IMG/VR virus record: IMGVR_UViG_3300021368_000002
Source: a virus
Taxonomy: Duplodnaviria > Caudoviricetes
Reading direction: 5' to 3' (one strand)
DNA: 64,000 bases
Shown here in pieces: positions 2,104 through 20,549 of the stretch (position 1 is the stretch's first letter; every line of letters starts with the position of its first letter). The notes below the pieces were generated by a model that was not told the DNA's origin, searched no databases, and saw nothing but the letters and a program-made list of their open reading frames with translations. The position numbers were made by a program, and so were the translations under genes.

Positions 2104-2160
2104 AGTATAACAAAAAGAACATTGTGGGCATAGCCCAGCGTAAAGTAATTTAAAGTAGCA

Positions 2161-2190: not shown

Positions 2191-2195
2191 ATCTT

Positions 2196-2945: not shown

Positions 2946-3231
2946 ATGGTGAAGGGTCCTTCACTCTAATATCTGCTGGATGCTTAGGACCATTTACACC
3001 GCCGCCTGCGTCAGTTGTGACAGCGTCAACTGGAGCAACTACCTCGTTTGGAGCATTACTTAACGGGCTTGCATTGTCTCTATTTTGTAACATTGCAAGT
3101 ATTTGCTTAAATCTACTTGTTTGCTCACCTGGTTCATTAGGTACACTCACATCAACACTCATTGTAGGTTGTTGTTGTTCTTCTTGGTCTAGTAAATCTA
3201 GTACAGCTCTAATAATATCTTGCGCTCGCAT
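2935..3231 (-). CDS. hypothetical protein
   Basis: AGGAG RBS and TAAATA motif upstream; + strand ORF 2939-3235 is its shadow. Confidence 0.75.
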   Translation of the reverse strand: MRAQDIIRAVLDLLDQEEQQQPTMSVDVSVPNEPGEQTSRFKQILAMLQNRDNASPLSNAPNEVVAPVDAVTTDAGGGVNGPKHPADIRVKDPSPYGK

Positions 3232-3249
3232 TTAAAACTCCTGTTATTG

Positions 3250-3264
3250 TATTTAGCGTAAATA
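3250..3264. promoter_or_regulatory. divergent pair of late-type TAAATA promoters
   Basis: TATTTA-GCG-TAAATA between divergent genes; T4 late promoter core is TATAAATA. Confidence 0.6.
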
Positions 3265-3268
3265 ACAT

Positions 3269-4468
3269 ATGATAGATAAAGAACCATTTGAACAGATACT
3301 TAAAGATTTAAAAGATCAAGGCAAGTATCGAGTTTTCAACGATATTGTTAGAGAGCGAGGGGATTTCCCTACAGCCATATGGTATGGACCGTATGCAATC
3401 AAAAATATTGTTAACTGGTGTTCGAATGACTATCTAGGTATGGGTCAAAACAAGGTAGTTATTGACGCAATGCATACTGCACTTGATCAAACAGGAAGTG
3501 GATCAGGTGGCACTAGAAACATTGGCGGCACATCACATTATCATGTTGCCCTTGAATTGGAACTAGCGTCTCTACACAGTAAAGAGAGTGCGCTCTTGTT
3601 CACTTCGGCATATGTCGCCAATGAATGGTCACTAATAGCTCTAAGCAAAATTGTTCCCGACATTGTGTTTTTGAGTGATTCAAAAAATCATGCAAGCCTC
3701 ATACAGGGTATCCGACACAGTGGTGCTGACAAACTAATATGGCAGCACAACAATATGAGTGATTTAGAGGAGAAGTTAGCACAAGTTACCGCCGAAGGAC
3801 GAACACCTTGCATAGTCTTTGAGTCTGTGTATAGCATGGATGGTGATGTCTCGCCAATTTCTTCGATCTGCGATCTAGCAGACACTTATGGTGCTATGAC
3901 CTATATTGACGAAGTCCACGCTGTAGGATTGTATGGAGAAGCTGGAGCAGGGTATCTAGAGAAGCTAGGTATTAAAGATAGGGTTGATATAGTCAATGGC
4001 ACTTTAGGTAAGGCCTTTGGTGTACAGGGTGGATACATAGCTGCCGATAGGACCGTTATAGACGCAATCAGATCTGTGTCTAGTGGATTCATATTCACCA
4101 CCAGCACTAGTCCTGTGATTTGTGCCGGTGCCCTTGCATCTATAAAATATCTAAAAGACCATAATGAGCTAAGAGAACAACATCAAGAAAGAGCTGCTTC
4201 TTTAAAACTTATGCTGAAACAAAAAGGTATAGAAGTATTAGAAGATGCTTGTACACACATCATACCAGTAATGGTAAGAGATGCCAAAAGATGCAAATCA
4301 ATGAGTGATGCATTATTAAATGATTATGGTATATACATACAGCCAATTAATTATCCAACAGTGGCTGTCGGGGAAGAACGTTTACGCATCGCGCCTACTC
4401 CTTTACATACAGATGCGATGATGCATCATTTAGTTGATGCACTTAGAAAGGTATTCGATGAATATTAA
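3269..4468 (+). CDS. hemA: 5-aminolevulinate synthase (PLP-dependent, Shemin pathway)
   Basis: [53 protein letters not shown] (PLP Lys), [13 protein letters not shown]. Confidence 0.95.
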
Positions 4469-4874
4469 AAAAACGTTTTGGCTAGTCTTGGGCTTTATGA
4501 GTCTCGGAATGGCCTATGTAGGAGTTGTCGTTCCTGGCATTCCATTTAGTATCTTCTTAGTATTTGCTGCCTATTGTTTTGCAAAAAGTTCTAAGCGGAT
4601 GCATGATTGGATTTACAATCACAAATACTTTGGTCCTTTCCTAACTAACTGGACGCAAAAAAGTGTGTTTCCTACCAAAGGCAAATACGCAATGATTCTA
4701 GTGATGGCATCGTCACTTGCATTCCTTTGGTTCACTACAGAAAATATCAAAGCTGTTGCTTGGAGCGGAGGGTTCATGGCACTGGTTGCAATTTGGGCAT
4801 GGAGGTTTCCAGGAACAGTCGACGAATGGCAAAGACGAAAAGATCAAGGTCTAAAGATAGGCTGGATAAAGTAA
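4458..4874 (+). CDS. ybaN: YbaN/DUF454 family inner-membrane protein
   Basis: [47 protein letters not shown] matches DUF454 pattern; start ATG 4458. Confidence 0.85.
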
Positions 4875-4885
4875 AGGCCCCGCTG

Positions 4886-5395
4886 TTACAGGTAGGGTTC
4901 CCAACTAGGATGCCGTACATCAATTTCTAATTGCTTACGCTTGTTCACAAGTTCCCAGTAATCAGGTTGGTACGGCATTTTTAGTGGCTTCATTTTCATT
5001 TTGTTGCCTTTGGAACTATTACATGGCCCGCAAGCAGCGACAATGTTGTTCCATGCGGTTTTGCCTCCCATACTAAGTGGTCGGACGTGATCTAATGTTA
5101 ATAATCTTCTAGGGAATTGTGTGTTGCAGTATTGACAAGTGTAAAGGTCGCGGAGGTAAAGGTTAGTTTTAGAGAATCTAGGCGTTCGCCGTCGCCGTTG
5201 AAATTCTTTAAGCATAATCACAGCAGGAACTTTAGTTTCCCAATTTGCACTGCTAACAACCCAATCATCATACCATTCAAGTACATCACACTTGTCTAGC
5301 CACATATAGGTAATGGCTTCTTTCCATTGTACAGCTGATAAAGGTAAGTATGAAACGGGTTGTGCGTCTGCATTTAACACAAGAACATCTGACAC
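4886..5395 (-). CDS. HNH endonuclease
   Basis: RDLYTCQYC..TLDHVRPLSMGGKTAWNNIVAACGPCNSSK; GTG start after AAGGAG. Confidence 0.9.
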   Translation of the reverse strand: MSDVLVLNADAQPVSYLPLSAVQWKEAITYMWLDKCDVLEWYDDWVVSSANWETKVPAVIMLKEFQRRRRTPRFSKTNLYLRDLYTCQYCNTQFPRRLLTLDHVRPLSMGGKTAWNNIVAACGPCNSSKGNKMKMKPLKMPYQPDYWELVNKRKQLEIDVRHPSWEPYL

Positions 5396-5420
5396 AACTA
5401 GAACTCCTTTTGGACTAGTA

Positions 5421-5621
5421 TTAATATTTATCAGTGGGAATACACACAGCTTGAGTATTGGTAGGAAAATAGCCTTCAGAACCACCTACTGTGAAACTTA
5501 GTTTTTCTCTTGCTTCAAAGCATTCTATCATATCATCGAACACATCACCATTAGGTCCTAGTGCATTCACTGCAATAGGATCAGTACCGCCTAAGATAAT
5601 ATATACCAACATCCATTTCAT
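5421..5621 (-). CDS. hypothetical protein (paired Cys)
   Basis: ORF track; tightly packed operon. Confidence 0.65.
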   Translation of the reverse strand: MKWMLVYIILGGTDPIAVNALGPNGDVFDDMIECFEAREKLSFTVGGSEGYFPTNTQAVCIPTDKY

Positions 5622-5872
5622 ATCGATTCACCTTGTTCTATTTGGCTTGCTTCAAGAAAATCTTTTAGTTTGTCCTCATTGACACACAAGAGCTTCTCTA
5701 GGCCATCTCCAGGAAATTCATCTTTCAAATGTAGATATATTGTAGGACCATTATCCTTTACCCATTCTACGCATTGTTCGGGATTATCAAAAATAGGATT
5801 GCTCCAAATGTAAACATCCTTTTGGTCTCCACTATAAACAAGAGACATAATTGCAACTAGGAAGACTTTCAT
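5618..5872 (-). CDS. hypothetical protein
   Basis: ORF track; 4-nt overlaps. Confidence 0.7.
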   Translation of the reverse strand: MKVFLVAIMSLVYSGDQKDVYIWSNPIFDNPEQCVEWVKDNGPTIYLHLKDEFPGDGLEKLLCVNEDKLKDFLEASQIEQGESI

Positions 5873-6222
5873 TGAGTAGGCCCTCCACTATAGGGTGCGA
5901 AATTTTTTCCTGTCATTAACATACAGCCTATTCCATCACCAAAAATCTGCATTACCGAAAATGTTCCTGTGTCTTGATTGGTAAAGAAAAATAATCCTCC
6001 CGTCATCATTTGGCCACTTCGTGCTTCAAAAGTAACCCCGTCGCCAAAAAACAAAAGTTCTTCACCATATTTTTCTGTTACCAGTGTCATCATTTCCGGT
6101 GCATAGTCACACGCTGAACGTGTGAAATAAAATCTCTCTTGGGGTTGGGTTTCTTGGGCTATACTTTGAGCTCCAAACACAACCGCAAGCAGAAAAAATG
6201 CAACCGCGGTTAGTTTGGTCAT
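5869..6222 (-). CDS. secreted hypothetical protein
   Basis: signal peptide; AGGAG RBS. Confidence 0.75.
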   Translation of the reverse strand: MTKLTAVAFFLLAVVFGAQSIAQETQPQERFYFTRSACDYAPEMMTLVTEKYGEELLFFGDGVTFEARSGQMMTGGLFFFTNQDTGTFSVMQIFGDGIGCMLMTGKNFAPYSGGPTQ

Positions 6223-6232
6223 ATCCGTTCTC

Positions 6233-6346
6233 CTATCTGTTCAGATACTCCAAATAGTTTTGAGCCACAAGCTGATCTATTTTGTCTTGTAACTTTCGCC
6301 ACTCCTTGGAGTCTTCAGCATAACGGCTTTGATCCTGTCTAAGCAT
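6233..6346 (-). CDS. 37-aa hypothetical peptide
   Basis: read by eye; fills gap in operon. Confidence 0.4.
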   Translation of the reverse strand: MLRQDQSRYAEDSKEWRKLQDKIDQLVAQNYLEYLNR

Positions 6347-6348
6347 TT

Positions 6349-6900
6349 TTAGAACCAGGCTGATATTGTTTCCTTCGTGCATTGTTCTAACGCCTTTTCC
6401 CATTGTTTTTCACCATCATACTGAAATACTATAGCACGGTCTGCTGGCATTGTCAACCACCCATTGTAATTTTGATAAGGAAAAGTTCCGTTTATCTCTG
6501 CTTGGAGCTGACCCTTAGACCATACTGCTAATCCTGTGAACACTCTATACTGTCTTGGAGCGTTACCAGTGCCTATTTTTTCTATCATAAATTCATCACT
6601 ACTAGCGGCTAGGCCCCGCTGTAGCAGGTAGGTATTACCACTATACCAATCATCTTCATGCACCAATGTGACGGCTTGCCCATTTACAGGCCCACCACAA
6701 TGTATCACTTCGTCTGTGATTGCAGGGCAACCTTTAGATTCTAAAAAACTCTGGAATGGAAAATTACTAGGTTTATTTAATACTACACCAACGCTGCCAT
6801 TATCAGCGTCTTCAATCATTAACACCACAGACCGGGTAAACATCCTATCTTTTAGATTAGGATGTGCGATTAGTAGATAGCCTTGGAGACTTTTTGACAT
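6349..6900 (-). CDS. yqgE: YqgE/AlgH (DUF179) family protein
   Basis: LLIAHPNLKDRMFTRSVVL, GSVGVVLNKP, GGPV, RVFTGLAVWSKGQLQAEI..GW. Confidence 0.9.
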   Translation of the reverse strand: MSKSLQGYLLIAHPNLKDRMFTRSVVLMIEDADNGSVGVVLNKPSNFPFQSFLESKGCPAITDEVIHCGGPVNGQAVTLVHEDDWYSGNTYLLQRGLAASSDEFMIEKIGTGNAPRQYRVFTGLAVWSKGQLQAEINGTFPYQNYNGWLTMPADRAIVFQYDGEKQWEKALEQCTKETISAWF

Positions 6901-6908
6901 AATATCTC

Positions 6909-7154
6909 CTAACTGTAATCCGGTAAAGGTCCGCCGTGAGCTTTTCCTTTAATCTTTTTACCACCAACCTTAATTCTTCTCTTGCCTACCTTATGACTTT
7001 TATTGCCACTACGGGTTCTAAGGCCTTGGCTTTTACAACTAGCCAACGCTGAGGCTCCTAATTTAGAATTAGGTTTGGAAGAACGACAAAGCTCTTTAGA
7101 GGCTTGCCATTCTTCAATATCTTCGACTAATGTTAATAATTCATCTATTCTCAT
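6909..7154 (-). CDS. small basic protein, hypothetical
   Basis: ATG 7154 just downstream of GATAAATA; Lys/Gly-rich. Confidence 0.7.
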   Translation of the reverse strand: MRIDELLTLVEDIEEWQASKELCRSSKPNSKLGASALASCKSQGLRTRSGNKSHKVGKRRIKVGGKKIKGKAHGGPLPDYS

Positions 7155-7155
7155 G

Positions 7156-7371
7156 CTATCTGTATTTATCCGCAGGATTATCAAAATCCGTGTCGGCTGA
7201 TTCGCATAATCTGAAAGTCAGCGCCTTTCGAGGTCCCCTGGTTGTATTGATATTGATCTCTCCTGATTTCTCATGGAATTCTATTTTCGTGATTTTAGCT
7301 CTATCATTTTTTGGTCCGACAAGTATCTCTTGTCCTAACTCTAGGTTAAGATTGATATTCTTCAATGTCAT
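7156..7371 (-). CDS. hypothetical protein
   Basis: AGGAG RBS; ATAAATA upstream at 7413. Confidence 0.7.
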   Translation of the reverse strand: MTLKNINLNLELGQEILVGPKNDRAKITKIEFHEKSGEININTTRGPRKALTFRLCESADTDFDNPADKYR

Positions 7372-7499
7372 GGGATTCTCCTTTTCGACTCAAAGGGCTG
7401 AGGCCTTCAAAGTATTTATTTTTCCAAAACAGGTTGACAATCTGTAGAGACTATAGTATATTGTATAGACAATGAGGCAACGAACTGAGGGGTTCAAAC

Positions 7500-7772
7500 A
7501 TGAAAACACTTAAACAATATATCAACGACAACAACCGTTGGATCGCAATTTTTGGCAATCCGCAGATGTCGTTTCCATTATCGCAAAAAGATGTAGATGA
7601 ACTGGCACAGACACTAGACAGCAACCTGTCTCCAGAAAATTTACATTGCGATGGTGAGATTTCGGTTGCAGAAGCAAATCGTAAATATCGCTTCTATGCA
7701 ACGGTAGCCGCAGAGCTTGAGGCATACTGCCGTTCAAACTCGCTTGCAATGCCAACCATTTACGAACTTTAA
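7500..7772 (+). CDS. early hypothetical protein
   Basis: behind promoter 7434 and GAGGGG RBS. Confidence 0.85.
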   Translation: MKTLKQYINDNNRWIAIFGNPQMSFPLSQKDVDELAQTLDSNLSPENLHCDGEISVAEANRKYRFYATVAAELEAYCRSNSLAMPTIYEL

Positions 7773-7783
7773 GAGGGACTGAT

Positions 7784-8116
7784 ATGTATTACATCTACGA
7801 ACAATCGACTACCTATATCATTGGCAAGCCAGACCGCAATGGTGTGGCTCGTCCAGATCATCGTCAGAGCTATAAAACAATGGCGGCGGCCAAAGCCGGG
7901 CTCACACGAATTGCAAAGGCGGAAGGCTTGTTGAAGACAGATCCTAACCATGCTGAGTATCGTTATGCGATAGCAGAAGCAGATTATTTCCATAAGAACA
8001 TTGAGAAGCAGGTGAAGCGAAAGGTGCTTGAAGGCTTTGGTGGCAAGGAGTTTATGGAACCTATCAACACCCCTTCCTATATGTCACCGTCAAGTGAATC
8101 ATATTGGAGTATGTGA
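7784..8116 (+). CDS. early hypothetical protein
   Basis: GAGGG RBS. Confidence 0.8.
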   Translation: MYYIYEQSTTYIIGKPDRNGVARPDHRQSYKTMAAAKAGLTRIAKAEGLLKTDPNHAEYRYAIAEADYFHKNIEKQVKRKVLEGFGGKEFMEPINTPSYMSPSSESYWSM

Positions 8117-8117
8117 T

Positions 8118-8642
8118 ATGGGAATGAAAATTACAGATTTTGTCCACGATGGTTTTTGCAAGATTGCTGATGTAAGATGGCATCCATGCGAACAAAGAAT
8201 TAGAGAGGGTAAATGGACTTTGGTAAACACAAACGACCTACTCCTCTTTTCAGAGCATGATAGTTGGATCTATTGTATTGTAGAAGGCGACATCATTAAG
8301 AAACTTGGCGAAACAGGTAACCCCTTAGGCGTGCAGAACAAAGATGGATCTTTGGCTACAGGCACCCAGGGCAGACTAGGACGTCTTTGTTCTATGGGCA
8401 GTATCAACTCCGACACCACCGACACCGACACCCGTATTAGATATGAATTGCAAGATTCTATAGATGCAGAGGTTGTATCTATTTGGGCCAAACCATGTGA
8501 GATTGTATATACTACAGTTTCGTTCCATGGACAGGAAAAACAAGTCAAGCTCACCACCCATAAGGATTTAGAAAGAGTGATGCTGGATCATATCTATGCT
8601 GAAACAGGAACATATCCTGATCTAAACAAAGGCAGAAAGTAA
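8118..8642 (+). CDS. GIY-YIG nuclease resembling T4 endonuclease II (DenA)
   Basis: WIYCIVEGDIIKKLGET ~ IYAIAINDELVYIGKT; SIWAKPC ~ EFYARQC; KDLE; PDLN ~ PPWN (by-eye comparison from memory). Confidence 0.6.
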   Translation: MGMKITDFVHDGFCKIADVRWHPCEQRIREGKWTLVNTNDLLLFSEHDSWIYCIVEGDIIKKLGETGNPLGVQNKDGSLATGTQGRLGRLCSMGSINSDTTDTDTRIRYELQDSIDAEVVSIWAKPCEIVYTTVSFHGQEKQVKLTTHKDLERVMLDHIYAETGTYPDLNKGRK

Positions 8643-8718
8643 CCAAAAGAGGTTGACATTTGCTAGTGTCGACCTTATTATGTATGTATAAGTTGAAACA
8701 ACAGACAAGAGGGTAACA

Positions 8719-8994
8719 ATGTCTAATTCAGTAACAAAAGCCGTCCAAGAGATTTACAAAATGGACAACGATCAGCTCAACCAAGTCGTTGAAGCGATTA
8801 AACTTCGTAGAACTTATTTGACTCGTGAGGCAGCTCGGTCTTTCCGAACAGGACAGATTGTGTCGTTTACATCTCGCACAGGTGGCAAAATTACAGGTTC
8901 TATTCAAAAGGTCAACCGTAAGTATATTATCGTTGATGCCCATGTAGGTGGCACACGATACAAGGTGCCTGCGTCAATGCTGGAGACTGTATAA
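8719..8994 (+). CDS. early hypothetical protein, SH3-like pattern
   Basis: promoter 8653; GQIVSF..ITGSIQKVNRKYIIV. Confidence 0.8.
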   Translation: MSNSVTKAVQEIYKMDNDQLNQVVEAIKLRRTYLTREAARSFRTGQIVSFTSRTGGKITGSIQKVNRKYIIVDAHVGGTRYKVPASMLETV

Positions 8995-9194
8995 TGTTAG
9001 CCTATTGCGATTACATTGCAGACACTATCAAGCGATCATTTAATAATGACAAGCCTGATAATATGATTAAAAGTGTAGGTCCTATTCAAATGGACCTACA
9101 TCCAACCGAAGGGTATTTCCTGTCTACCAAAAAGACGATGAGCATGACAGACATGAACGGAAAGACCTATATGATTACAATAGAGGAGGCGTAA
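8994..9194 (+). CDS. early hypothetical protein
   Basis: TAATG coupling. Confidence 0.75.
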   Translation: MLAYCDYIADTIKRSFNNDKPDNMIKSVGPIQMDLHPTEGYFLSTKKTMSMTDMNGKTYMITIEEA

Positions 9195-9359
9195 ATGAAC
9201 GAACTTGTTGAAATGATCGAAGACCTTGAAACGATCTCTACCATGACCATGCACCCTGCATTGGAAGAAACAATCGAACGCATCACCCAGAAGTATGAAC
9301 AGCGTTTGGCTGATGCAGAAGCAGATCTTGAACGCCAATACGAGATGGACTTTGCTTAA
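9195..9359 (+). CDS. 54-aa acidic hypothetical protein
   Basis: GAGGAGG RBS; read by eye. Confidence 0.7.
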   Translation: MNELVEMIEDLETISTMTMHPALEETIERITQKYEQRLADAEADLERQYEMDFA

Positions 9360-10002
9360 TCCTAACACCATAACAGGGAGGTATCTTGCATTCTACCAAG
9401 ACCTCCTTGAACATTGCGACACCTGCGTAGGTGAAGCATTGGGTTCCAATCAGCCAGCGGCTCGTGCTAAAGATTTGAGAAACAGAGGCTATGTTTTTAA
9501 GAAGCACGGCAACCAATATGTTCGCTCAGTGTTCTGCGAAACCTGTGGCAAGTCTACTCCACATCGTCAATTGGAAAGTGCCGAGCCGGTCAATGCTGCC
9601 ATACACAGAGCAGGATGGAGCGCCAAGTTCGTCAAGCGAGTAAAAAAGGTCCTTTCCAACTACGATGAAATAGAACGGCGGACACTCAACCCTGCCCAAC
9701 TAGAAATTGATCACCGTGTTCCCCATATCCGATTTGAAGAAAGTGAACAGCTCGACGAAGCGACAATCACGGACAATGAAATCCGTGAACGGTATATGCT
9801 CCTCAAGCGAGACAATAACCTGCTCAAAAGTCGTGCCTGCGAAAGATGCGAACGAGACGGAAAGAGACAGCCTAGTCGCGATGGTGTCCAGTTCTTTTAC
9901 GAAGGCTCAGATGTATTCACAGGATCTTGTGTAGGGTGCTATTGGCACAATCCAAGTCTCTGGACAGAAAAACTTAATCAAAATCTCTTGACAAATGCCT
10001 AG
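9295..10002 (+). CDS. HNH nuclease resembling NlaIII/IceA-type restriction endonucleases; start uncertain
   Basis: EIDHRVP, N..KSRACERC, FYEG, CVGCY; comparable motifs recalled in NlaIII (EIDHK, CKKC, FYVG, CVGCY). Confidence 0.65.
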   Translation: MNSVWLMQKQILNANTRWTLLNPNTITGRYLAFYQDLLEHCDTCVGEALGSNQPAARAKDLRNRGYVFKKHGNQYVRSVFCETCGKSTPHRQLESAEPVNAAIHRAGWSAKFVKRVKKVLSNYDEIERRTLNPAQLEIDHRVPHIRFEESEQLDEATITDNEIRERYMLLKRDNNLLKSRACERCERDGKRQPSRDGVQFFYEGSDVFTGSCVGCYWHNPSLWTEKLNQNLLTNA

Positions 10003-10050
10003 ACTGACGCTATATTGTATGTATAGTTAGAAACAACGGAGGGCAATCCA

Positions 10051-10269
10051 ATGGCAACAGATTTGAAAAGCACCACAGAAGATGTTAGTTTGACTCGCTT
10101 CTGGGGTGGCAAAGACCGCGGAACTTGTGTTCAAGTCACAACCACATACACCGCTCGTAGAGAAGACTTCTTCAAACATATATCGTTGACTCGAGAACAG
10201 GCTCGTTCTGTTGCTGAGGATTTGATGGCATTTGCTGAAGGTAATGAAGAGGCAGACTATTCATTATGA
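10051..10269 (+). CDS. early hypothetical protein
   Basis: promoter 9988; GGAGGG RBS. Confidence 0.8.
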   Translation: MATDLKSTTEDVSLTRFWGGKDRGTCVQVTTTYTARREDFFKHISLTREQARSVAEDLMAFAEGNEEADYSL

Positions 10270-10409
10270 TTTATGTGGTTAAGGACTCAAAAGGCAATAC
10301 GGTAGCACTCTGCTCAGATATAAAAGACGCTGAAGCATATCTAAAGAGTGCTGCCGTTGATAAAACAACCTACACGATTGAAACAATAAAAAACAAGGAA
10401 GAAAAATGA
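10266..10409 (+). CDS. 47-aa hypothetical protein
   Basis: read by eye; ATGA overlaps at both ends. Confidence 0.6.
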   Translation: MIYVVKDSKGNTVALCSDIKDAEAYLKSAAVDKTTYTIETIKNKEEK

Positions 10410-10807
10410 CCCATACCTTTTTCGAAAAAAATTCAAACTATATTGTAGAAGAACAATTCGACTCCGAACCGTTCATCGTCGAAGTGTCATGGGCACCAGA
10501 CTCAACCCAACTGGAGTTGGTATTTGATCCTTCAGAAGACTATTTCGAAGAGCTCCAGGAAAAGATCCGTGATGGTGTTTGGGAGCATTTCATCCTTAAA
10601 GTGGCTGTCTATTATGATGGACTGGAAGTAGGCAGTTCCTATCTGGGATCTATCGTTGCAGAATCACCTGCAGATTATATCAAAGACGATCCAGACAATC
10701 ATGTAGACGAAATGGTCAGAGAAGCACTCGACGAAGCCCAGAACGAATGTCTTAAACGATTAGACCGTTTGAAAGAAGATTTCCTAGGATTGTCCATTAC
10801 TGGTTGA
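10406..10807 (+). CDS. very acidic early protein
   Basis: AAGGA RBS; D/E-rich. Confidence 0.8.
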   Translation: MTHTFFEKNSNYIVEEQFDSEPFIVEVSWAPDSTQLELVFDPSEDYFEELQEKIRDGVWEHFILKVAVYYDGLEVGSSYLGSIVAESPADYIKDDPDNHVDEMVREALDEAQNECLKRLDRLKEDFLGLSITG

Positions 10808-10864
10808 CACGAGTGTGATCAGAATGTATTATTAGGGTATAGTTAGAAACAACGGAGGGCTCCG

Positions 10865-11149
10865 ATGGCTTATTACACCTACACTCAAAAACCAATTGGT
10901 GTTTTTGTAGAAAAAGACACTGGCAATTATTTTGAATATTCGGTTAATGACGAGCCCTATTCAAACCCACTTGCTGAGGACTTTCCACACAAGGTATGGG
11001 TAGGTGGAGGAGGTGTTGCTGGCATGACTGGCTGGCGCTTTGCCCATGTTCGCAAGACTGTGGCAACTATAGTCGTAGACGAAGATGAGTATGGTCTACC
11101 TGTTGTAGAGAAATGGTATTTGAAATCCAATAAGGAGTATGCGGTATGA
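10865..11149 (+). CDS. early hypothetical protein
   Basis: promoter 10804. Confidence 0.85.
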   Translation: MAYYTYTQKPIGVFVEKDTGNYFEYSVNDEPYSNPLAEDFPHKVWVGGGGVAGMTGWRFAHVRKTVATIVVDEDEYGLPVVEKWYLKSNKEYAV

Positions 11150-11418
11150 GATTTGATAATCTCGTGTTTTTCGGATCGCCTGAAGGCATCAAAAGAGCAA
11201 AGGTTCAGTTCGGCAAGTATGAACTGAGTGTGATACAGGAGCCCAAAAAGAACTCCTATGAAATCGCAATCTTTGACGAACAAGGAAGTTTCGTTCAGCT
11301 CCCTGGTATCCATAGAATCCCTGTGGATGATAGAGACTTCGTAGACGATGTGATCCCTTATCTTCAACCCGAGGCTGTTTCGGCAATCATGCTCAAGTTG
11401 GCATCCATTTCAGGTTGA
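11146..11418 (+). CDS. early hypothetical protein
   Basis: AAGGAG RBS; ATGA overlap. Confidence 0.75.
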   Translation: MRFDNLVFFGSPEGIKRAKVQFGKYELSVIQEPKKNSYEIAIFDEQGSFVQLPGIHRIPVDDRDFVDDVIPYLQPEAVSAIMLKLASISG

Positions 11419-11488
11419 CAATACAAAAATAGATGTTATAGTAAGAGTATAGTTAGAAACAACAAAACGCCTTAGGAGGGCTCCACAA

Positions 11489-11944
11489 ATGGCAACTCGT
11501 TCAAATATCGCTTACAAAACCGCAGAAGGCAAAATCCGTTCAGTGTATTGTCACTGGGATGGCTACCCTGCTCACAATGGTGAAATGCTCACTCGTCACT
11601 ATAGCGAACTAGACAAGGTGCGTCAGTTGATTGCACTAGGTTCTATCTCGTCTTTGCGTGAGGAGATCGGCGACAAGCAGGACTTTGATGATCGTTCGAC
11701 ACAGAATGACGCATGGACACTTGCCTATCACAGAGATCGCGGCGAGCAATTGAGCATCCAAGAATATGATGATGTTCCCAGCTGGATCGAAGACATGGAG
11801 GAGTATGCCTATCTTTGGACGGAAAACGGTTGGTTGGTAAACGACCACGGTGCAAAAGATGCCAACGGCTTTCCTATCTTCGACTATGTTGAAACGGTAG
11901 TCACAGATGAGATGCGAAAGCAGATTGGATGGGATAACGAATAA
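11489..11944 (+). CDS. conserved phage early protein (YCHWDGYP motif)
   Basis: MATRS.I..IRSVYCHWDGYPAHNG..L..HY; promoter 11415. Confidence 0.85.
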   Translation: MATRSNIAYKTAEGKIRSVYCHWDGYPAHNGEMLTRHYSELDKVRQLIALGSISSLREEIGDKQDFDDRSTQNDAWTLAYHRDRGEQLSIQEYDDVPSWIEDMEEYAYLWTENGWLVNDHGAKDANGFPIFDYVETVVTDEMRKQIGWDNE

Positions 11945-12114
11945 TGACAGAGATGCATATGGCGTGGGATGCCTTACAAGCCCTTCTTATCGTAGGATTC
12001 ACAATCGGTGTGGTTTGTGCAGTGATATTCGCTGCCATTAGACTGGGCTGGCAACTAGCCCCTTGGCTGTTTATTGGTGCATTTATCGTATGGTTTTTCA
12101 ATCAAATCACTTGA
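11944..12114 (+). CDS. 56-aa two-TM membrane protein
   Basis: read by eye; TAATG coupling; stop lies in next -35. Confidence 0.6.
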   Translation: MTEMHMAWDALQALLIVGFTIGVVCAVIFAAIRLGWQLAPWLFIGAFIVWFFNQIT

Positions 12115-12175
12115 CATTACGTCTAGAGATGTTATTATATATGTATAGTTAGAAACAAGGCAATGGAGGGTAACA

Positions 12176-12730
12176 ATGCCAAACTGGTGTAACAACACAA
12201 TCACAATCAAAGGTTCAACTGAAACTGTAAAGGCTCTTTGGGACCAAGCCACACAAGAAGACTCAGGTTTGCTGGATGCAATGATTCCTATGCCTGAAGC
12301 ACTCAAAGGCACTACTTCACCTGATCCTCAGCCAGGACAAGCCAATTACAAAGGTCCACAGCCTGTGGTTGATGGCTTCACTAATTGGTATGATTGGGCT
12401 ATCAAGAACTGGGGCGTCAAGTGGGATGTTTCAACCGAAGGGCTTGAGTATGAAGATCTAGGTGACGGCACTGCCTCTATCACAGGCTGGTTTGATTCGC
12501 CTTGGGGACCTCCTATTGAAGCCATGCAGAAGTTCGCAGACGATATGGACGGTGCCTATGTCGAACTGTTCTATCACGAGCCAGGCATGGCATTCGTAGG
12601 CTGTTGGGACTCAGAAGGTGGAGATGACTATTATGAATATGCCTCTGCTGATGACATTCCCGATTACCTAGACGAAGCCTTTGGCATCTCAGAAGATCTT
12701 GCGATGTGGGCAGAAGAGGAGACAGCGTAA
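12176..12730 (+). CDS. DUF1281/YubB-like (Api92-like) protein
   Basis: MPNWCNN.I.I.G, WYDWAIKNWGVKWD, FDSPWGPP, L.Y.EPGM.F.G. Confidence 0.8.
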   Translation: MPNWCNNTITIKGSTETVKALWDQATQEDSGLLDAMIPMPEALKGTTSPDPQPGQANYKGPQPVVDGFTNWYDWAIKNWGVKWDVSTEGLEYEDLGDGTASITGWFDSPWGPPIEAMQKFADDMDGAYVELFYHEPGMAFVGCWDSEGGDDYYEYASADDIPDYLDEAFGISEDLAMWAEEETA

Positions 12731-12894
12731 TGGATGCGGTATTGTTTGAAGACGTGGATCCAATGGAACTGGTATTAGAAGCAGTAGAGGACGCACTCAA
12801 AGGTCAGTGCGCCTCGTTTGAAATCATGAGTATTGATGGCGATGACACGGGCTTGACCTTTACTGTCTCTGCAGAATACAAGGAGAACTCTTAA
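12730..12894 (+). CDS. acidic 54-aa protein
   Basis: TAATG coupling. Confidence 0.65.
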   Translation: MDAVLFEDVDPMELVLEAVEDALKGQCASFEIMSIDGDDTGLTFTVSAEYKENS

Positions 12895-13139
12895 TGGTAA
12901 TGAGCCTGCGTGAAACTTTCAAAAGCCCCGGCGTAAAAGCTCGCTGGGTCTGCGTGTATGAGAATGCACCTATGACGGTTCATGCTACCAAAGAAGATGC
13001 AATGAACCAATTGATCCGTGAACACAATCCTGCGATTCGTGTAACTGATCCTAGAGGCGTGACACGGGTGACCATAGACGAGCATCGATCGTTCGTATAT
13101 CACACCCACGAACCGGAGGCAGATGATGGGACCGTATAG
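12894..13139 (+). CDS. hypothetical protein
   Basis: AAGGAG RBS. Confidence 0.7.
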   Translation: MVMSLRETFKSPGVKARWVCVYENAPMTVHATKEDAMNQLIREHNPAIRVTDPRGVTRVTIDEHRSFVYHTHEPEADDGTV

Positions 13140-13335
13140 CGAAGAAACACAATATCGCAGAGCTCAGAGCATCTGCAACCTGTTGGAGCGATCGCCTGAT
13201 CTGCCCGCAGAAACTAGAGCTATTTGGCAGAATCACCTCGCCAATCTCGCTAGAAACGAAACCACTTACAATTGGCGAGTGAAAGAAATCTATTCTAAAC
13301 TAACAAGGAGGCCTTTGATCCAATGGGACGAGTAA
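13123..13335 (+). CDS. hypothetical protein
   Basis: GGAGG RBS. Confidence 0.7.
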   Translation: MMGPYSEETQYRRAQSICNLLERSPDLPAETRAIWQNHLANLARNETTYNWRVKEIYSKLTRRPLIQWDE

Positions 13336-13508
13336 ACGACTGGACACTTGGTATGGAAGAAGATGCGAGCTGGATGAGCAGAGACGTGTTCGTTCGAGTG
13401 TATGGCATCCGTCAACAAGACATCTGGGAACGGATTAACAACCCTGAGGACTACTACGAACCAGAGCCTGACTTTGAAGCAATGGAAGAAGGTTTCTATG
13501 GCTCGTAA
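13323..13508 (+). CDS. acidic hypothetical protein
   Basis: AAGGAGG RBS. Confidence 0.7.
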   Translation: MGRVNDWTLGMEEDASWMSRDVFVRVYGIRQQDIWERINNPEDYYEPEPDFEAMEEGFYGS

Positions 13509-13722
13509 GTTCGCAAAAAGATATTTGAAGCCTACAGTATTTGATCCCAAGGATCATTGGATGGTAGGCATTGAATGGCCCGTGCAAGGTTCCAAAGGCA
13601 ATGAATATCTAGTGACCTTGCACGACCAAGGCTTTGAATGTGAATGCACAGGATTCCAATTCCACGGTGCTTGCAAGCATAGCAAAGCCGTTCTCGCTCA
13701 AGTAGAAGGAGCAATGACATGA
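13498..13722 (+). CDS. SWIM zinc-finger protein
   Basis: CECTGFQFHGACKH (CxCxnCxH); start ATG 13498. Confidence 0.8.
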   Translation: MARKFAKRYLKPTVFDPKDHWMVGIEWPVQGSKGNEYLVTLHDQGFECECTGFQFHGACKHSKAVLAQVEGAMT

Positions 13723-13928
13723 GCAAACCTAAACAGTTTAAGGGCCGGGTCTACACCTATTCACAGCCCTACACAACCTACAATACCTTTCCTAACTCTG
13801 CACCATTCACCAAACAGGAGATGCAGACACAACAGGAATTAGGTCGTTGGAAAACAATCGACTCAATCGTAGATAAGATGGATGAGTTCCCTGAAGTTGA
13901 GAGGTTGCTGGCCCAAATAGTGCGATAG
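13719..13928 (+). CDS. hypothetical protein
   Basis: AAGGAG RBS; ATGA overlap. Confidence 0.7.
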   Translation: MSKPKQFKGRVYTYSQPYTTYNTFPNSAPFTKQEMQTQQELGRWKTIDSIVDKMDEFPEVERLLAQIVR

Positions 13929-13953
13929 CACCTGCGGTTCTAAAAAAAATTTT

Positions 13954-14247
13954 ATGAGCATTGTATACGATATAGATGATGAAACACGGCAATACCTAGA
14001 GGCAGCTCTTAACTGTCTTGTTCATGTAGCAGATTGCCAAATACAAGATGCAGACGCAGAAGCTCTTTATCACATAGGTGACACACTAGCAGATAGATTC
14101 GGCATTGAAAAGATAGATGTTGAAACCGTGCAGGGCACTGACGAGAATGGTGAAGAGGTTACTGTGATCAGAGAACGCAAGCGACCTTCAAAAGGATTGA
14201 GTTGGAGTATTAGCCACGAAGATCCAGATGATATGAACGAAGATTAA
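13954..14247 (+). CDS. acidic hypothetical protein
   Basis: ORF track. Confidence 0.65.
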   Translation: MSIVYDIDDETRQYLEAALNCLVHVADCQIQDADAEALYHIGDTLADRFGIEKIDVETVQGTDENGEEVTVIRERKRPSKGLSWSISHEDPDDMNED

Positions 14248-14257
14248 CACACCACGA

Positions 14258-14310
14258 GGCCCCGCTGTTAGAACCTAGATTACCTACACGACCTACAGGC
14301 CCCGCTGTAT
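14258..14310 (+). repeat. two copies of GGCCCCGCTGT, 40 bp apart
   Basis: 14258-14268 and 14298-14308; further copies at 4876 and 18357. Confidence 0.85.
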
Positions 14311-14342
14311 GGTCTCTGCGATCTGCGATAAATATCTTTCAC

Positions 14343-14495
14343 ATGGCACATGAACGAGATTTTGCAGACGAAACAGACGATCCTTGCGATCACATACCTA
14401 TCGAACGACTGTTGTTATGGTATACGTCAAATGAGCCACATCCTGAATACCCCAAGCAAATAGAAACACGAGATACTGAAGGCGATGCCCTATGA
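14343..14495 (+). CDS. 50-aa hypothetical protein
   Basis: read by eye; GATAAATA upstream. Confidence 0.5.
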   Translation: MAHERDFADETDDPCDHIPIERLLLWYTSNEPHPEYPKQIETRDTEGDAL

Positions 14496-14635
14496 TCTCA
14501 GTAGTAGAGAAACAGAATCGTAACCGTAAAACCTATTGGGTGGTAGAGCGGAACGGTAGTATATTGCTTATCACACACTCAAAAAGCATTGCCCAAGACT
14601 ATGCAGATAAACTACGAGCCAACACTAGAGACTAG
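14492..14635 (+). CDS. 47-aa hypothetical protein
   Basis: read by eye; ATGA overlap. Confidence 0.5.
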   Translation: MISVVEKQNRNRKTYWVVERNGSILLITHSKSIAQDYADKLRANTRD

Positions 14636-15228
14636 TGTGAGTGCGAGTATAGTTAGAGTGAAAAACGGTGAAAAGTATTTGAACTATGCCTCTCGTCACC
14701 TTCCGTGACTCGAAAAAATTCACACTTAGAACCGTAGAGAACCGTGATTGTTGGATGGTTTTCTGCACACTAGCCACCATTTAACCACCATTGCAGGGCC
14801 CTTAAAACCGTCTTAAAAGGCGAGTTTGACCTTGGTCCACGGCTCGCAGGGAGAGGTGGTTTGAGGGGCCTCCGGCCCCACTTTGCCCCTACTCTACTAC
14901 TACAGTTTCAACCTACTCTGTCGCTAGTAGTGTTTCAACCTAAGACTCTGATTCTGCACATTTTTTCCACTCTTTGCTAGCCGTATATTATACACTCTCT
15001 ACACTATATAAGCAAGTTAAAAGACACATTAACTATACGATGTAACCTACTGTTATTATTAGACTTTTTCCTAAGTATTTGATTTTATTGGATTTTTTCT
15101 CGCGGCCATCGTGGTCTTTCGTTCTTTAGGTGTCGTTCGTTCTTTTTGCGATTTTGGATAAAAAGAGGTTGACAGGTGTGTAGGCAGGTGCTATAGTGTA
15201 TGTATAGTTAGAAATTAGGAGGGCACCT

Positions 15229-15444
15229 ATGCAATACGGAATGTTTACTAAAGAAGGCGATGCGAAAGTCCACAAGTTGGTCCTGCAAGCGAGGCAGTAT
15301 GCGGATTTGGATGGACCGATTAATCCTGTAGAGCAGGCGTGGAATTGGTTGCTAAACGAGCTCCATGCACTAGGCGAGGATCCGGCTTTTGAAGAGGCGA
15401 CCGACACAGCCGTTAGAGAGGCCTGTTACGACAGGCTAATTTAA
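15229..15444 (+). CDS. early hypothetical protein
   Basis: promoter 15169; GGAGGG RBS. Confidence 0.85.
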   Translation: MQYGMFTKEGDAKVHKLVLQARQYADLDGPINPVEQAWNWLLNELHALGEDPAFEEATDTAVREACYDRLI

Positions 15445-15521
15445 TCGCCAAAAGAGGTTGACACTATAGCGAACAGGTGCTATAGTGTATGTATAGTTAG
15501 AAACGCAGAGAGGGCACAATC

Positions 15522-15869
15522 ATGCAATTCATCGTAAGCACACAGGGACTTGAGAACTATGGCGCACACTGTGAGGACGGCAAGTTCCGTTCGGGCAATG
15601 CCTACTGGAAGTTCAAGTCAGGCACGGACTACCTTGTGTCGGGCCTAGAGCGGCCGCAAGATGCGATGGCATTCGTTGCCTCGTTCGGTATGGACAATTC
15701 AATCGGTTGGAAGGAGTTCCCATGCGAGGTTGTGAGCGAGGATGAATGGGAGTCACAGTGGAACATGGACGACGAGTTCGATGTGGAACACAGAGAGTTC
15801 AAGCTCTCTATTATGGTTAAGGTGGATCCGAGAGATCCGGCGACCTACAAACGGTTTTTGGCAAGGTAG
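15522..15869 (+). CDS. early hypothetical protein
   Basis: promoter 15458. Confidence 0.85.
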   Translation: MQFIVSTQGLENYGAHCEDGKFRSGNAYWKFKSGTDYLVSGLERPQDAMAFVASFGMDNSIGWKEFPCEVVSEDEWESQWNMDDEFDVEHREFKLSIMVKVDPRDPATYKRFLAR

Positions 15870-15932
15870 GGGTTGACAACCCCGCCACCTGGTGTTATAG
15901 TAGTTGTATAGTTAATAGAGAGGGTGATGACA

Positions 15933-16136
15933 ATGTTTGTACTGATTTGGAAAGGTGAAGAGATTGATTCGTTTGAGTCCGAGGCAGAGGCCCGGAGCAT
16001 GGCGAGTGAATACAACATGGCCTACGGTGGAGGTGTCCACGTAGAGTTTGTCGAGGAAGACGACGGACAGCCAAGTTGGGAGCAGGAGTGGGAAGACTTC
16101 GGCGAAGACGCAGGATACGAGATGGAGTATCTCTAA
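15933..16136 (+). CDS. extremely acidic small early protein
   Basis: promoter 15873; D/E-rich C-terminus. Confidence 0.8.
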   Translation: MFVLIWKGEEIDSFESEAEARSMASEYNMAYGGGVHVEFVEEDDGQPSWEQEWEDFGEDAGYEMEYL

Positions 16137-16139
16137 AGA

Positions 16140-16336
16140 GGCCCTCAGGTCGGGAGTATAAACCCAGTTAGACCGGAACACCTACATACAAGTTCCGGCG
16201 GGAGATGGGAAGGCGCCCTCGAGAAAGGCCTCCCACTTTTAACGCCCGCGGTTTTAACGCCCGTGACTTTTTGGGTCCTTTCGTGCGGTAAAAAGGTCAG
16301 AGCTCCGTGCCCTCCCGTTCCAGCTCTCCGGTCCTC
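16140..16336 (-). ncRNA. candidate structured RNA from the divergent promoter
   Basis: GC-rich; several inverted repeats (GACCGGA/TCCGGTC, CCGGAAC/GTTCCGG, AGAGCT/AGCTCT); TTTTAACGCCCG direct repeat; no start codon after its RBS-like motif. Confidence 0.4.
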
Positions 16337-16342
16337 AATTAT

Positions 16343-16371
16343 AATATAGCACAAGCCTAGCACTATGTCAA
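16343..16371 (-). promoter_or_regulatory. divergent sigma70-like promoter
   Basis: reverse strand GGGG-TTGACA-N17-TATATT. Confidence 0.8.
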
Positions 16372-16399
16372 CCCCTTGTGCGAAAAAAGAATCCTTTGT

Positions 16400-16453
16400 T
16401 TTCAAGAGGTTAGAAAAAAAATAAAAATAAATTTTTCTGCTAAGTCATTGTTT
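16400..16453. promoter_or_regulatory. inverted pair of IHF-consensus-like sites flanking an A/T tract
   Basis: TTTCAAGAGGTTA (16400) and TAAGTCATTGTTT (16441), each 1 mismatch from WATCAANNNNTTR. Confidence 0.45.
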
Positions 16454-16537
16454 TTAAACAAAACATTTTGCTTTACAAGTACGTATTGTTGTGTTATATT
16501 GTTTGTATGTTAACAAATGCATATAGGAGGGCAACAT

Positions 16538-16852
16538 ATGCAAACAACAACAAAAACATTAGACTGTGCTGTACGTGTAAATTGGGTAGCAGAGGATGCA
16601 GAATGGAAAGCAGAGTTTGAACAGTATGGCTATGACACAGATATGTGGGTTGCTGTAGGTGACTTTGATTATGAATGGAGAGATAACGTAGAAACTGTGG
16701 CTGTATTAAAAGACGAAGAATACGGTTTTATGTGTGGAAACGAAAGTGACAGGCGCTGCTACGGATTTACTGTGGATGTGTACAAAGCAGAGGAAGCAGA
16801 TGGCAACTACAGTTTTTGGATAACAGAGGAAGACTTTGAAAAAATAGGTTGA
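16538..16852 (+). CDS. acidic Pro-free early protein
   Basis: TTTACA promoter; GGAGGG RBS; ATG 16538. Confidence 0.85.
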   Translation: MQTTTKTLDCAVRVNWVAEDAEWKAEFEQYGYDTDMWVAVGDFDYEWRDNVETVAVLKDEEYGFMCGNESDRRCYGFTVDVYKAEEADGNYSFWITEEDFEKIG

Positions 16853-16913
16853 CAACTGTGTGTATGTGTGCTACTATGTACACATACACTAACAAGCAAT
16901 AGAGGGCAATGCT

Positions 16914-17165
16914 ATGCTTACAAAATACGAAAACGCAGTAACAAAAGCAATTGAATATTTTGCACTGCAAATTAACAACTGTGCGCACGACAGCGTAGTA
17001 GAAAACAACGACTACGGAATTTACGACAGCATAGACAGCATAAACTTTTTGTTTAGCAACTACAAAAATTTTGACAGCGTAACAGCACTTGCAAACTTTG
17101 CACTAGACAGCACACTGGATACTGTAGTGCGCGAAAACATATACTACGTGCTAACGGAAAAATAA
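16914..17165 (+). CDS. acidic Pro-free early protein
   Basis: hairpin promoter 16849. Confidence 0.8.
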   Translation: MLTKYENAVTKAIEYFALQINNCAHDSVVENNDYGIYDSIDSINFLFSNYKNFDSVTALANFALDSTLDTVVRENIYYVLTEK

Positions 17166-17231
17166 CACTTGACAACTGTGTATGTGTGCTATAGTGTACA
17201 CATACACTAAACATAGCAGAGAGGGCAAACT

Positions 17232-17447
17232 ATGCTACAAGTACACATTTTACAACTGCAAGGCACAGGCGACGACGAGAAGGCTTGGGAGAACGCAGGG
17301 GTGTTTGCAAGTTGGGAAGAAGCACAAGAACGTGCAGCAGAATTTAGCAAAGAAGACATTGAGGAGTACGGCGAAGCGTTTTGGATAATGGGCGAGAATA
17401 TGCGTATTGAAACACATGACGTAGTAGACAACAACTGGGGGTACTAG
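17232..17447 (+). CDS. acidic Pro-free early protein
   Basis: hairpin promoter 17169. Confidence 0.8.
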   Translation: MLQVHILQLQGTGDDEKAWENAGVFASWEEAQERAAEFSKEDIEEYGEAFWIMGENMRIETHDVVDNNWGY

Positions 17448-17519
17448 TAAAAAAAACAGTTGACAGCAGCAAGTTTTGTGTTATACTGTATGTACAGTTA
17501 AACAAAACGAGGGCTACGT

Positions 17520-17768
17520 ATGTTAACTACAAAACAACTTGCACGTAATGTGTTTTTAACTTATTGCAGCACTAGCAATACAATGTTTAAACATTGTAGC
17601 AAAACAAAGCCGCAGCACGTTAGCACAACAAACGTAAAAGCAGTAAAGCGCAACGTAAGCGCACAACTTGTGCAACAGTACAAAATGCTTCCTGCACTGT
17701 ACAACTTGTACAACAAAAACAAAAGTGTTAAGCAAACAGCAACACAACTAATTAACAGCATTGTGTAA
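17520..17768 (+). CDS. basic early protein with no Asp, Glu, Gly or Trp
   Basis: promoter 17460; GAGGG RBS. Confidence 0.75.
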   Translation: MLTTKQLARNVFLTYCSTSNTMFKHCSKTKPQHVSTTNVKAVKRNVSAQLVQQYKMLPALYNLYNKNKSVKQTATQLINSIV

Positions 17769-17842
17769 AAAAAACTTGACAACTGTGTGTATGTGTGCTA
17801 CTATGTACACATACACTAAACATTGCAACTAGTGAGGGCTAC

Positions 17843-18316
17843 ATGGCAATACATTACAGTACACAGGTACAAGACTACTTTGAACACTTGACAAACGAGT
17901 GTGCAGACGAAACACGTTTTACACAAGACGAAAAGTGTTTTGTGTTAGAATTTTTAGCAAACACACTGTATGGCTTAACGGAAGTAAACAGCGAAAGTTT
18001 GCGTGACGACAAGCAATTTGTGCGTATGCAAGATTGCAGTGAGGTAGCAGACAACTACGTAATGCTACTAAACAAACACAAACGCAGTGACTATACTGTA
18101 GTAAACGGCAAGTATGTGGAAAGTGACGAATACTATACGTTTACACTAGAAGATGCAGGCACTGCTATTTGCAGTTATGACACAGAGTATAGAGAGTGCA
18201 TAACAGAGCAATTTGAAGATGCACTTAACGAGTACTTTGCATTAAGCAAAGCAAACAAAATTGCAACACTTGATATTGCAAACTGTTTAGCGTGGCGAGT
18301 GTTTAACAGTTACTAA
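17843..18316 (+). CDS. acidic Pro-free early protein
   Basis: hairpin promoter 17776; ATG 17843. Confidence 0.85.
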   Translation: MAIHYSTQVQDYFEHLTNECADETRFTQDEKCFVLEFLANTLYGLTEVNSESLRDDKQFVRMQDCSEVADNYVMLLNKHKRSDYTVVNGKYVESDEYYTFTLEDAGTAICSYDTEYRECITEQFEDALNEYFALSKANKIATLDIANCLAWRVFNSY

Positions 18317-18386
18317 CGCTAACACTGTGCAGTGTGTGCAAATGCGTACACTGTGCGGCCCCGCTGTATAGCGGATAAAACATAAC

Positions 18387-18428
18387 AAAAACAAGCACTT
18401 ACAAAAAAAATGCTAAGTGCTTGTTTTT
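18387..18428. repeat. perfect 15-bp inverted repeat with IHF-like arms
   Basis: AAAAACAAGCACTTA-N12-TAAGTGCTTGTTTTT. Confidence 0.85.
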
Positions 18429-18513
18429 AAACGAAACTTTTTGCTTGCATTGTGCAAATAGTTGTGTTATATTGTTTGTATAAATTAAATGTAACAGCAT
18501 AGAGGGTAATAAT

Positions 18514-18774
18514 ATGCAAAACACACAAACAAACAACTATGTATTTTTAGCAGCAGCAAACGCTGCTATTGTTGTAACTGTAAACAACAAAGTTGTTGCT
18601 ACAGACGTACAAACAGCAGACGCACTTGTGCAAGTGTTTTTAACACATAATATTAATGTACTAAAAGACACTATTATGTGTAGCAGCAGCATAGATTTTG
18701 CAGAAGAAGAGGGCTTTGCTAGTGACGCAAGTGCGCATAATATAATAGATGAAGCATTTGAAGCATTAGCATAG
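18514..18774 (+). CDS. Pro-free early protein
   Basis: TTGCAT promoter; GAGGG RBS. Confidence 0.8.
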   Translation: MQNTQTNNYVFLAAANAAIVVTVNNKVVATDVQTADALVQVFLTHNINVLKDTIMCSSSIDFAEEEGFASDASAHNIIDEAFEALA

Positions 18775-18879
18775 TACGCTAATACTTTAGTATAGCAAGC
18801 ACTATACAAAAAAGTGCTTGCTATTTTTATTTTTTGTGTTATATTAGTTGTATAAGTTAACAAGCATATGAGGGCTATT

Positions 18880-19149
18880 ATGCAAAATACAACAACAAAA
18901 ACCGCACGTAGCATTGTGCGTAACATCCTAAAGCAAAACAACGTAATGTATTCCTCACATAGTTATACAAACAAATGTGCAAATCCTGCGCTGCGTAATA
19001 TTTGCTTCCTCACTAAAAACTTAACTCCTGCTGTGCTGCAACAAATTGCTTCTTCGCTTAATGTTAGCAAAGTACACGCAACAAAGCCTAAGTTTTACAA
19101 TGTGCATCCGGATGCACGTTACCTACGCATTGTGCATTGCAAAATGTAA
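18880..19149 (+). CDS. basic early protein (one Asp, no Glu/Gly/Trp)
   Basis: TTGCTA promoter; GAGGG RBS; ATG 18880. Confidence 0.75.
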   Translation: MQNTTTKTARSIVRNILKQNNVMYSSHSYTNKCANPALRNICFLTKNLTPAVLQQIASSLNVSKVHATKPKFYNVHPDARYLRIVHCKM

Positions 19150-20302: not shown

Positions 20303-20379
20303 GGGCCATTAGCTCAATTGGTTAGAGCACCGGACTCATAATCCGTAGGTTGACAGTTCGAGTCTGTCATGGCCCACCA
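20303..20379 (+). tRNA. tRNA with CAT anticodon, most likely Ile2 (lysidine type)
   Basis: GGGCCAT/ATGGCCC acceptor, CT-CAT-AA loop, TTCGAGT T-loop, encoded CCA; paired G1:C72 argues against initiator. Confidence 0.88.
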
Positions 20380-20382
20380 GAA

Positions 20383-20459
<77 letters not shown>

Positions 20460-20464
20460 ATACC

Positions 20465-20549
20465 GCTCGCGTGGTGAAATAGGTAAACACAACGGACTTA
20501 AAATCCGTCGCCGATAGGCTTGCCGGTTCGATTCCGGCCGCGAGCACCA
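20465..20549 (+). tRNA. tRNA-Leu(TAA)
   Basis: GCTCGCG/CGCGAGC acceptor, ACGGA-CT-TAA-AA-TCCGT, long variable arm, CCA. Confidence 0.95.

Follow-up and report, generated by a model that had tools for sequence, protein, structure and literature searches.

The window analysed here is the whole 64,000-nucleotide stretch of IMG/VR virus record IMGVR_UViG_3300021368_000002. It carries an 11-mer, GGCCCCGCTGT (the word), in five exact copies on the + strand, two of which lie shortly before a conserved 27-bp core named B1. The window is from an uncultured aquatic jumbo myovirus of the PA5oct/Atu_ph07-like type. It was classed as a T4-like jumbo myovirus because genes for sheath, tube, large terminase, helicase, UvsX, SSB and primase are present. 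Based on the sheath the closest cultured phages are PA5oct, Atu_ph07 and Phosso (41-47% identity). The region from 7.4 to 23.3 kb is filled by small + strand genes behind strong sigma-70-type promoters. The features of the locus are as follows.

4876-4886, + strand: exact copy of the word, distal, at the convergent junction of the DUF454 and HNH genes, 9.8 kb before B1
6612-6622, + strand: exact copy, the fifth, inside the minus-strand DUF179/AlgH gene (6349-6900)
14258-14268, + strand: exact copy, main cluster, 415 bp upstream of B1
14298-14308, + strand: exact copy, main cluster, 375 bp upstream of B1
14674-14700, + strand: B1, conserved 27-bp core in single copy, with an A/T tract after it; candidate site of end formation by a cut or nick
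14774-14902, + strand: downstream arm with conserved short words and CTACTA repeats
15072-15084, - strand: IHF consensus site 400 bp downstream of B1
15169-15197, + strand: first sigma-70-type early promoter after B1
16446-18901, + strand: YC-free island
18357-18367, + strand: exact copy within the YC-free island, 3.7 kb after B1
23367-23462, + strand: B2, the second conserved non-coding element, at the end of the early block; candidate for the other boundary

The chance expectation for the word in the window was 0.01 and no shuffle gave five copies, in agreement with the first-pass annotation, which had considered it not expected by chance. Near-matches with two mismatches occurred at chance level only. 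That annotation had listed four exact + strand copies. All four were confirmed as exact and on the + strand, while a fifth exact copy at 6612 had been overlooked. The four were also said to be intergenic and 3' of a + strand gene, and they do lie 1-50 nt past a + strand stop codon. This does not extend to the 6612 copy, which is inside a minus-strand gene, and the 4876 copy overlaps the stop codon of the minus-strand HNH gene (4886-5485). The copies at 14258 and 14298 are 40 bp apart, the spacing typical of the family. The 6612 copy overlays codons for LQRGL in a variable loop of DUF179/AlgH, and just one other homolog (L120) was found to have this copy, with neighboring codons altered. Downstream of it, at 6628-6644, is a weak + strand look-alike of B1 within DUF179 codons (13 of 17 bases), probably due to chance (profile score 4 compared to 51).

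The word was then compared across related loci. These loci are not phylogenetically independent, and "distinct" refers to different flanking sequence; L081, L085, L093 and L113 were dropped from later counts as they look like unrelated GC-rich sequence. The consensus in relatives is GRCCCCGCTGY, and position 11 (T or C) is the sole varying base among the anchored IMG/VR loci. Polarity in these loci was 22:0 relative to the AAA gene anchor and 0:25 relative to the HNH gene anchor on the opposite strand, so that the absolute direction agrees. In 74 distinct loci of an independent metagenome set the polarity was 97:0 and the distribution around B1 was the same. Twenty-five long records (4.37 Mb) contained 49 copies, on a single strand in each record, compared to two for the reversed control. 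In the 10 long records which also matched B1 every copy was at most 15.3 kb from it. A 330-kb record had eight copies within 17 kb and zero elsewhere, a 357-kb record had three within 190 bp, and a more distant relative of 343 kb had zero. Recurrent places for satellite copies are the DUF454/HNH junction, the YC-free island (approximately 10 relatives) and variable linkers in the genes for DUF179 and AAA. At the DUF454/HNH junction the word or its GA variant was present in L116, L117, L121, L123, L257 and L334, with differing flanks. The first-pass annotation had named equal frequency on both strands and in coding DNA genome-wide, or lack of conservation in relatives, as outcomes that would refute it; the word proved polar and conserved. 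Its suggestion of a protein-recognized polar signal under selection is supported, as the word is strictly confined to one strand and is conserved in more than 100 related loci. In the literature no description of the word, B1 or B2 was found; the word itself matched unrelated primers only, and no described jumbo phage end or origin motif came up. The word is a real, family-wide and undescribed element of a large uncultured aquatic giant phage family.

The word keeps the same absolute orientation whether it is within a gene of the minus or the plus strand, at a convergent junction or in a gap. From the sequence it is read as a DNA signal and not a terminator, because it is oriented without regard to the direction of the local genes and has neither a conserved hairpin nor a conserved U-tract. 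Of 334 copies, only 12 are followed by a T-run. The hairpin pointed out earlier at the 18357 copy does exist and is small, but it is not conserved, as only 4 of 334 distinct copies have one. An intrinsic terminator would have a hairpin and, after it, a U tract on the transcribed strand, which the repeat copies lack, and an Rfam search of the region returned tRNAs only. A terminator or processing signal acting at the RNA level is therefore extremely unlikely, even though many copies follow a stop codon and one has the small hairpin: sense and antisense contexts carry the word in one absolute orientation, T-runs and hairpins are rare, and Rfam gave no match. The earlier proposals of factor-dependent termination and RNA recognition are not supported for the same reasons.

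A Chi-like site, at which host RecBCD or AddAB would limit resection of the end, had also been proposed. The word is polar, G-rich on the minus strand and near the presumed end. It also contains AGCGG, the Bacillus Chi. At 10-11 invariant nt, however, the word is longer than known Chi sites, its clade variants are uniform within genomes, and it is tightly coupled to one core. In five alphaproteobacterial genomes the 10-mer occurred 14, 67, 14, 1 and 3 times compared to 38, 107, 22, 0 and 1 for an anagram, and thus showed no enrichment in these five. A Chi role is very unlikely on these grounds. The mostly genome-uniform clade variants, together with the lack of enrichment in alphaproteobacterial genomes, point instead to a phage-encoded protein as the reader of the repeat. 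A processing or packaging site would fit best among the roles first listed, though such a role is inferred only.

The first-pass annotation missed that the word belongs to a composite locus centered on the unique core at 14674-14700. Across 41 loci, 71 of approximately 92 copies were in the kilobase before B1, nearly all of them 50-600 bp from it. The word or a variant was present in 103 of 105 B1 loci with enough upstream DNA. Variants at B1 loci include the GACCCCGCTG, GGTCACCGCTG and CTCGCTGTG types. Most genomes use one variant throughout, and the two commonest variants are mixed in five loci. TAGTAG words peak 50-250 bp before B1 and the inverse, CTACTA, 200-400 bp after it, giving a pseudo-symmetric site in which inverted low-complexity arrays bracket B1. 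In the GGTCACCGCTG clade (L366, L038) AT-rich tandem repeats and a 20-bp word in four copies take the place of the arm after B1. IHF consensus sites are most frequent at +300 to +700 from B1. Their density across the family was 1.76 per kb near B1 compared to a background of 0.08 per kb (22-fold), with sites in 61 of 103 loci. Sigma-70 promoter density rises approximately tenfold just after B1. DnaA-box arrays, often with boxes 11-12 bp apart, were found in 14 of 103 B1 loci; none was near B1 in the window, and tandem DnaA boxes were absent from the same five cultured relatives that lack the word (see below). Arrays of four to eight DnaA boxes 300-800 bp after B1 were seen at L057:777-865 and in L027, L039, L083, L115, L204, L210, L246 and L266. 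Such arrays could act as a DnaA sponge or tether.

This layout could also be that of a replication origin, in which a phage initiator or helicase loader would bind the word as an iteron-like site and B1 would be melted or nicked with the help of host IHF and sometimes DnaA. Direct repeats beside a unique core, the IHF sites and the occasional DnaA-box arrays are in keeping with this, as is the fact that the phage has its own helicase and primase. SPP1 oriL and oriR likewise consist of direct repeats and an unwinding element (PMC6316719). An AT-rich unwinding element is missing here, however (maximum A+T 0.62 compared to 0.56). Spacings are irregular (23-73 bp) with no significant helical phase (Rayleigh p 0.07-0.13), and most loci, the window included, lack DnaA arrays. 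T5 DnaA arrays of this kind have been argued not to be an origin (10.1101/866236). An origin is considered unlikely.

The DnaA boxes also bear on a locus like the T5 injection stop (iss), which would tether DNA during staged entry and have the word as its conserved direct repeat. In T5 the boundary of the terminal repeat is straddled by direct repeats and DnaA-box pairs (10.1101/866236). T5 repeat region 3 resembles the B1 locus in being a long non-coding region at a terminal repeat boundary with direct repeats and paired DnaA boxes, and the pairs here, 11-12 bp apart and 300-800 bp inside the early block boundary, are similar to it. The two differ in that T5-like phages, a different family, all have DnaA arrays. 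Paired boxes would be expected in every member and were found as exceptions (14 of 103 loci), and the repeat is on the opposite side of B1. The model for T5 is itself an in silico proposal. An injection stop is given a slim chance.

The cluster opens the early promoter block and island copies are ahead of promoter modules, as would suit a DNA site acting on transcription. The reader could then be a phage DNA-binding protein, serving as a repressor, roadblock or insulator which separates or shuts off the early block. The main cluster is, however, separated from the first promoter by 0.5-1.9 kb and in no case overlaps -35 or -10 boxes. Most of the approximately 20 early promoters have no copy, and copies within genes of either strand have no promoter near. 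A transcriptional role is quite unlikely.

The reading preferred here, held at about even strength, is that a sequence-specific protein encoded by the phage recognizes the copies as oriented sites, and that they belong to a composite locus by which a genome end is defined at B1. B1 is read as a terminal repeat boundary because of the position of the CBB end, the layout of SPP1 pac and lambda cos, and the repeats at the T5 boundary. A unique central site in each genome is expected of an end-forming site, and B1 occurred exactly once per record in the 14 records where it was matched. Flanking repeated sites and bending elements, expected likewise, are present at B1. PA5oct has a direct terminal repeat of 39,080 bp (1-39080) which holds early genes (PMC7318152). 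The CBB terminal repeat is 22,456 bp (1-22456). The mapped ends of both are in gaps between annotated genes, within the margin of short predicted open reading frames (ORFs). The CBB left end precedes the first early promoter by approximately 300 bp and is in a long gap that follows minus-strand genes; B1 has this position in the window. Both are related jumbo myoviruses whose repeats contain early genes and whose ends are in gaps near early promoters. They differ in that PA5oct is without the word (CBB was not scanned whole) and that the mapped ends are unmatched by the B1 and B2 profiles. SPP1 pac and lambda cos have a unique center bracketed by repeated protein sites and bent A/T tracts, with IHF on one side (PMC4856287; PMC6316719). 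SPP1 pacL-pacC-pacR and lambda cosN and cosB, with R1-R3 and the IHF site I1, share the layout of the B1 locus. There is no sequence likeness, and their packaging is headful or by cohesive ends and not with long terminal repeats. The repeat here is by comparison a strict 10-11-mer with satellites up to 15 kb away, and is known from sequence alone.

Under the genome-end reading the early genes would be held in a long direct terminal repeat that has B1 as its left boundary and runs to approximately B2. On replicated concatemers a protein bound, or a nick made, at the repeats would position the terminase cut. Alternatively, or in addition, the repeats may position a priming event that duplicates the terminal repeat. 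IHF would bend the DNA on the other side of B1, as in SPP1 pacL-pacC-pacR or lambda cosN-cosB. The candidate proteins are as follows.

50322-51899, - strand: large terminase subunit, the putative cutter
54244-54732, - strand: T4 gp16-like small terminase candidate, possible reader of the repeat (weak match to PHROG phrog_445, E 0.003)

The small terminase candidate, one option for the reader, is conserved in 20 of 30 records. The ORF at 51907-52341, directly upstream of the large terminase, was rejected as a small terminase, not being a conserved one. In a wider form of the genome-end reading the repeat, core, IHF arm and island satellite would be a dedicated polar address code. It would be read by the phage and direct both duplication and cutting of a 6-13 kb terminal repeat, with the specificity of the reader or nickase drifting between clades. 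The code would then be a signal, defined by sequence, for the building of long terminal repeats in jumbo phages. This form is put forward tentatively as possible but doubtful.

The copies may otherwise be programmed single-strand nick sites as in T5, phiKMV-like phages and tf, where a nickase would ease the start of packaging and the end would not be defined by the locus. Known nick words are on one strand only, 7-9 nt long, variable among related phages and densest in the half packaged first (PMC3517423). The word is similarly confined to one strand, is found in genes and gaps and has clade variants, much like the single-chain interruptions of these phages (PMC3517423). Unlike those, it is restricted to within approximately 15 kb of one core, and nicks here are hypothetical. 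The 14 sites of tf have no reported link to one core, whereas here 103 of 105 loci have two to eight copies tied to B1. In both G002 and G005 more than 300 kb is free of the word, and no contig ends in a partial copy. Nick sites of this type are judged improbable.

Contig ends were in excess within 100 bp of B1, with 11 upstream and 9 downstream compared to 3.1 expected on each side. This supports a genome end at B1 but is only suggestive. A purine flip occurs across B1 and also at the PA5oct left end.

Several results count against a genome end at B1. Contig breaks near it may stem from strain variation, and contig starts show no single-base pile-up there. Scans with the B1 and B2 profiles missed the mapped ends of PA5oct, CBB, Munch and XacN1, and the word is absent from five cultured relatives, PA5oct among them (CBB was not scanned whole). 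The analogy to the ends of cultured relatives is positional only for these two reasons. The purine flip is absent at the CBB and Munch ends. The AAA gene is between B1 and B2 in the window but outside the PA5oct repeat, and early-type promoters of the window are also found upstream of B1 (7434-12111). The reading does not account for the copies at 2-15 kb or for the link of the word to the YC-free island. The IHF sites could instead serve early promoters. The small terminase of a genome with a variant repeat had nothing distinctive and no clear change.

Other searches were also made. Contigs starting within B1 were sought and four matches were obtained, none at a contig start. In cultured relatives a short core pattern matched at control level, and DNA searches of cultured phages gave tRNA or chance matches only; an smpB-like match (E 0.9) was rejected as chance. 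A likeness of B1 and B2 to the PA5oct, CBB and XacN1 ends noticed by eye was rejected as the profile scan gave no support. The XacN1 repeat length used in the comparison of ends is an assumed value and not an annotated one. The CBB and Munch left ends have a conserved 25-bp context in common (L340:1500-1530 and the L344/L339 junction), so that group of phages has its own end consensus.

To our knowledge, the choice and duplication of ends in phages with long terminal repeats (T5, SPO1, PA5oct-like jumbo phages) is still poorly understood. The more than 100 natural variants of the locus provide an aligned anatomy of a candidate end signal. The prediction is at base level: an end within 14674-14700 and doubled coverage to approximately 23.4 kb, which existing virome reads could test. 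If it holds, sequence alone would suffice to orient genomes of an abundant uncultured marine and freshwater family and to delimit their first-expressed module. Co-variation with the clade variants offers a route to the reader protein.

The distance from B1 to B2 is approximately 8.7 kb in the window and 6-13 kb in relatives. B2 also reads as a terminator-like hairpin on the minus strand. It was found in 57 IMG/VR stretches, with two copies in L489, has phased T tracts and shares a short AAGTAY word with B1.

The + strand of the YC-free island (16446-18901) contains six TC or CC dinucleotides, three of them inside the 18357 copy. The remark that this copy keeps CCCC and GGCC within the island is thereby borne out. 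C is present in the island at close to the normal level, so that selection is suggested and not a loss of C to T. UV 6-4 photoproducts form at TC and CC, and Rho binds to YC. The island is kept in many relatives and its own repeat copy travels along (L005, L015, L022, L036, L042, L076 and G002); in G002 the island copy is at +15 kb. The islands of some relatives are adjoined by stretches also free of GA and GG. A duplicated 71-bp promoter module with an IHF-like word (16438-16508 and 18411-18481) is upstream of two island genes (family D12).

Host-like metabolic genes are present at 619-4874 of the window.

619-1110: copper-protein-like ORF (by eye)
3269-4468: 5-aminolevulinate synthase
4434-4874: DUF454

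The aminolevulinate synthase is nearest to alphaproteobacterial enzymes when probable phage contigs in bins are set aside, and for this reason the host is probably, but not certainly, an alphaproteobacterium. Three tRNA genes were found within the early block (20303-20546).

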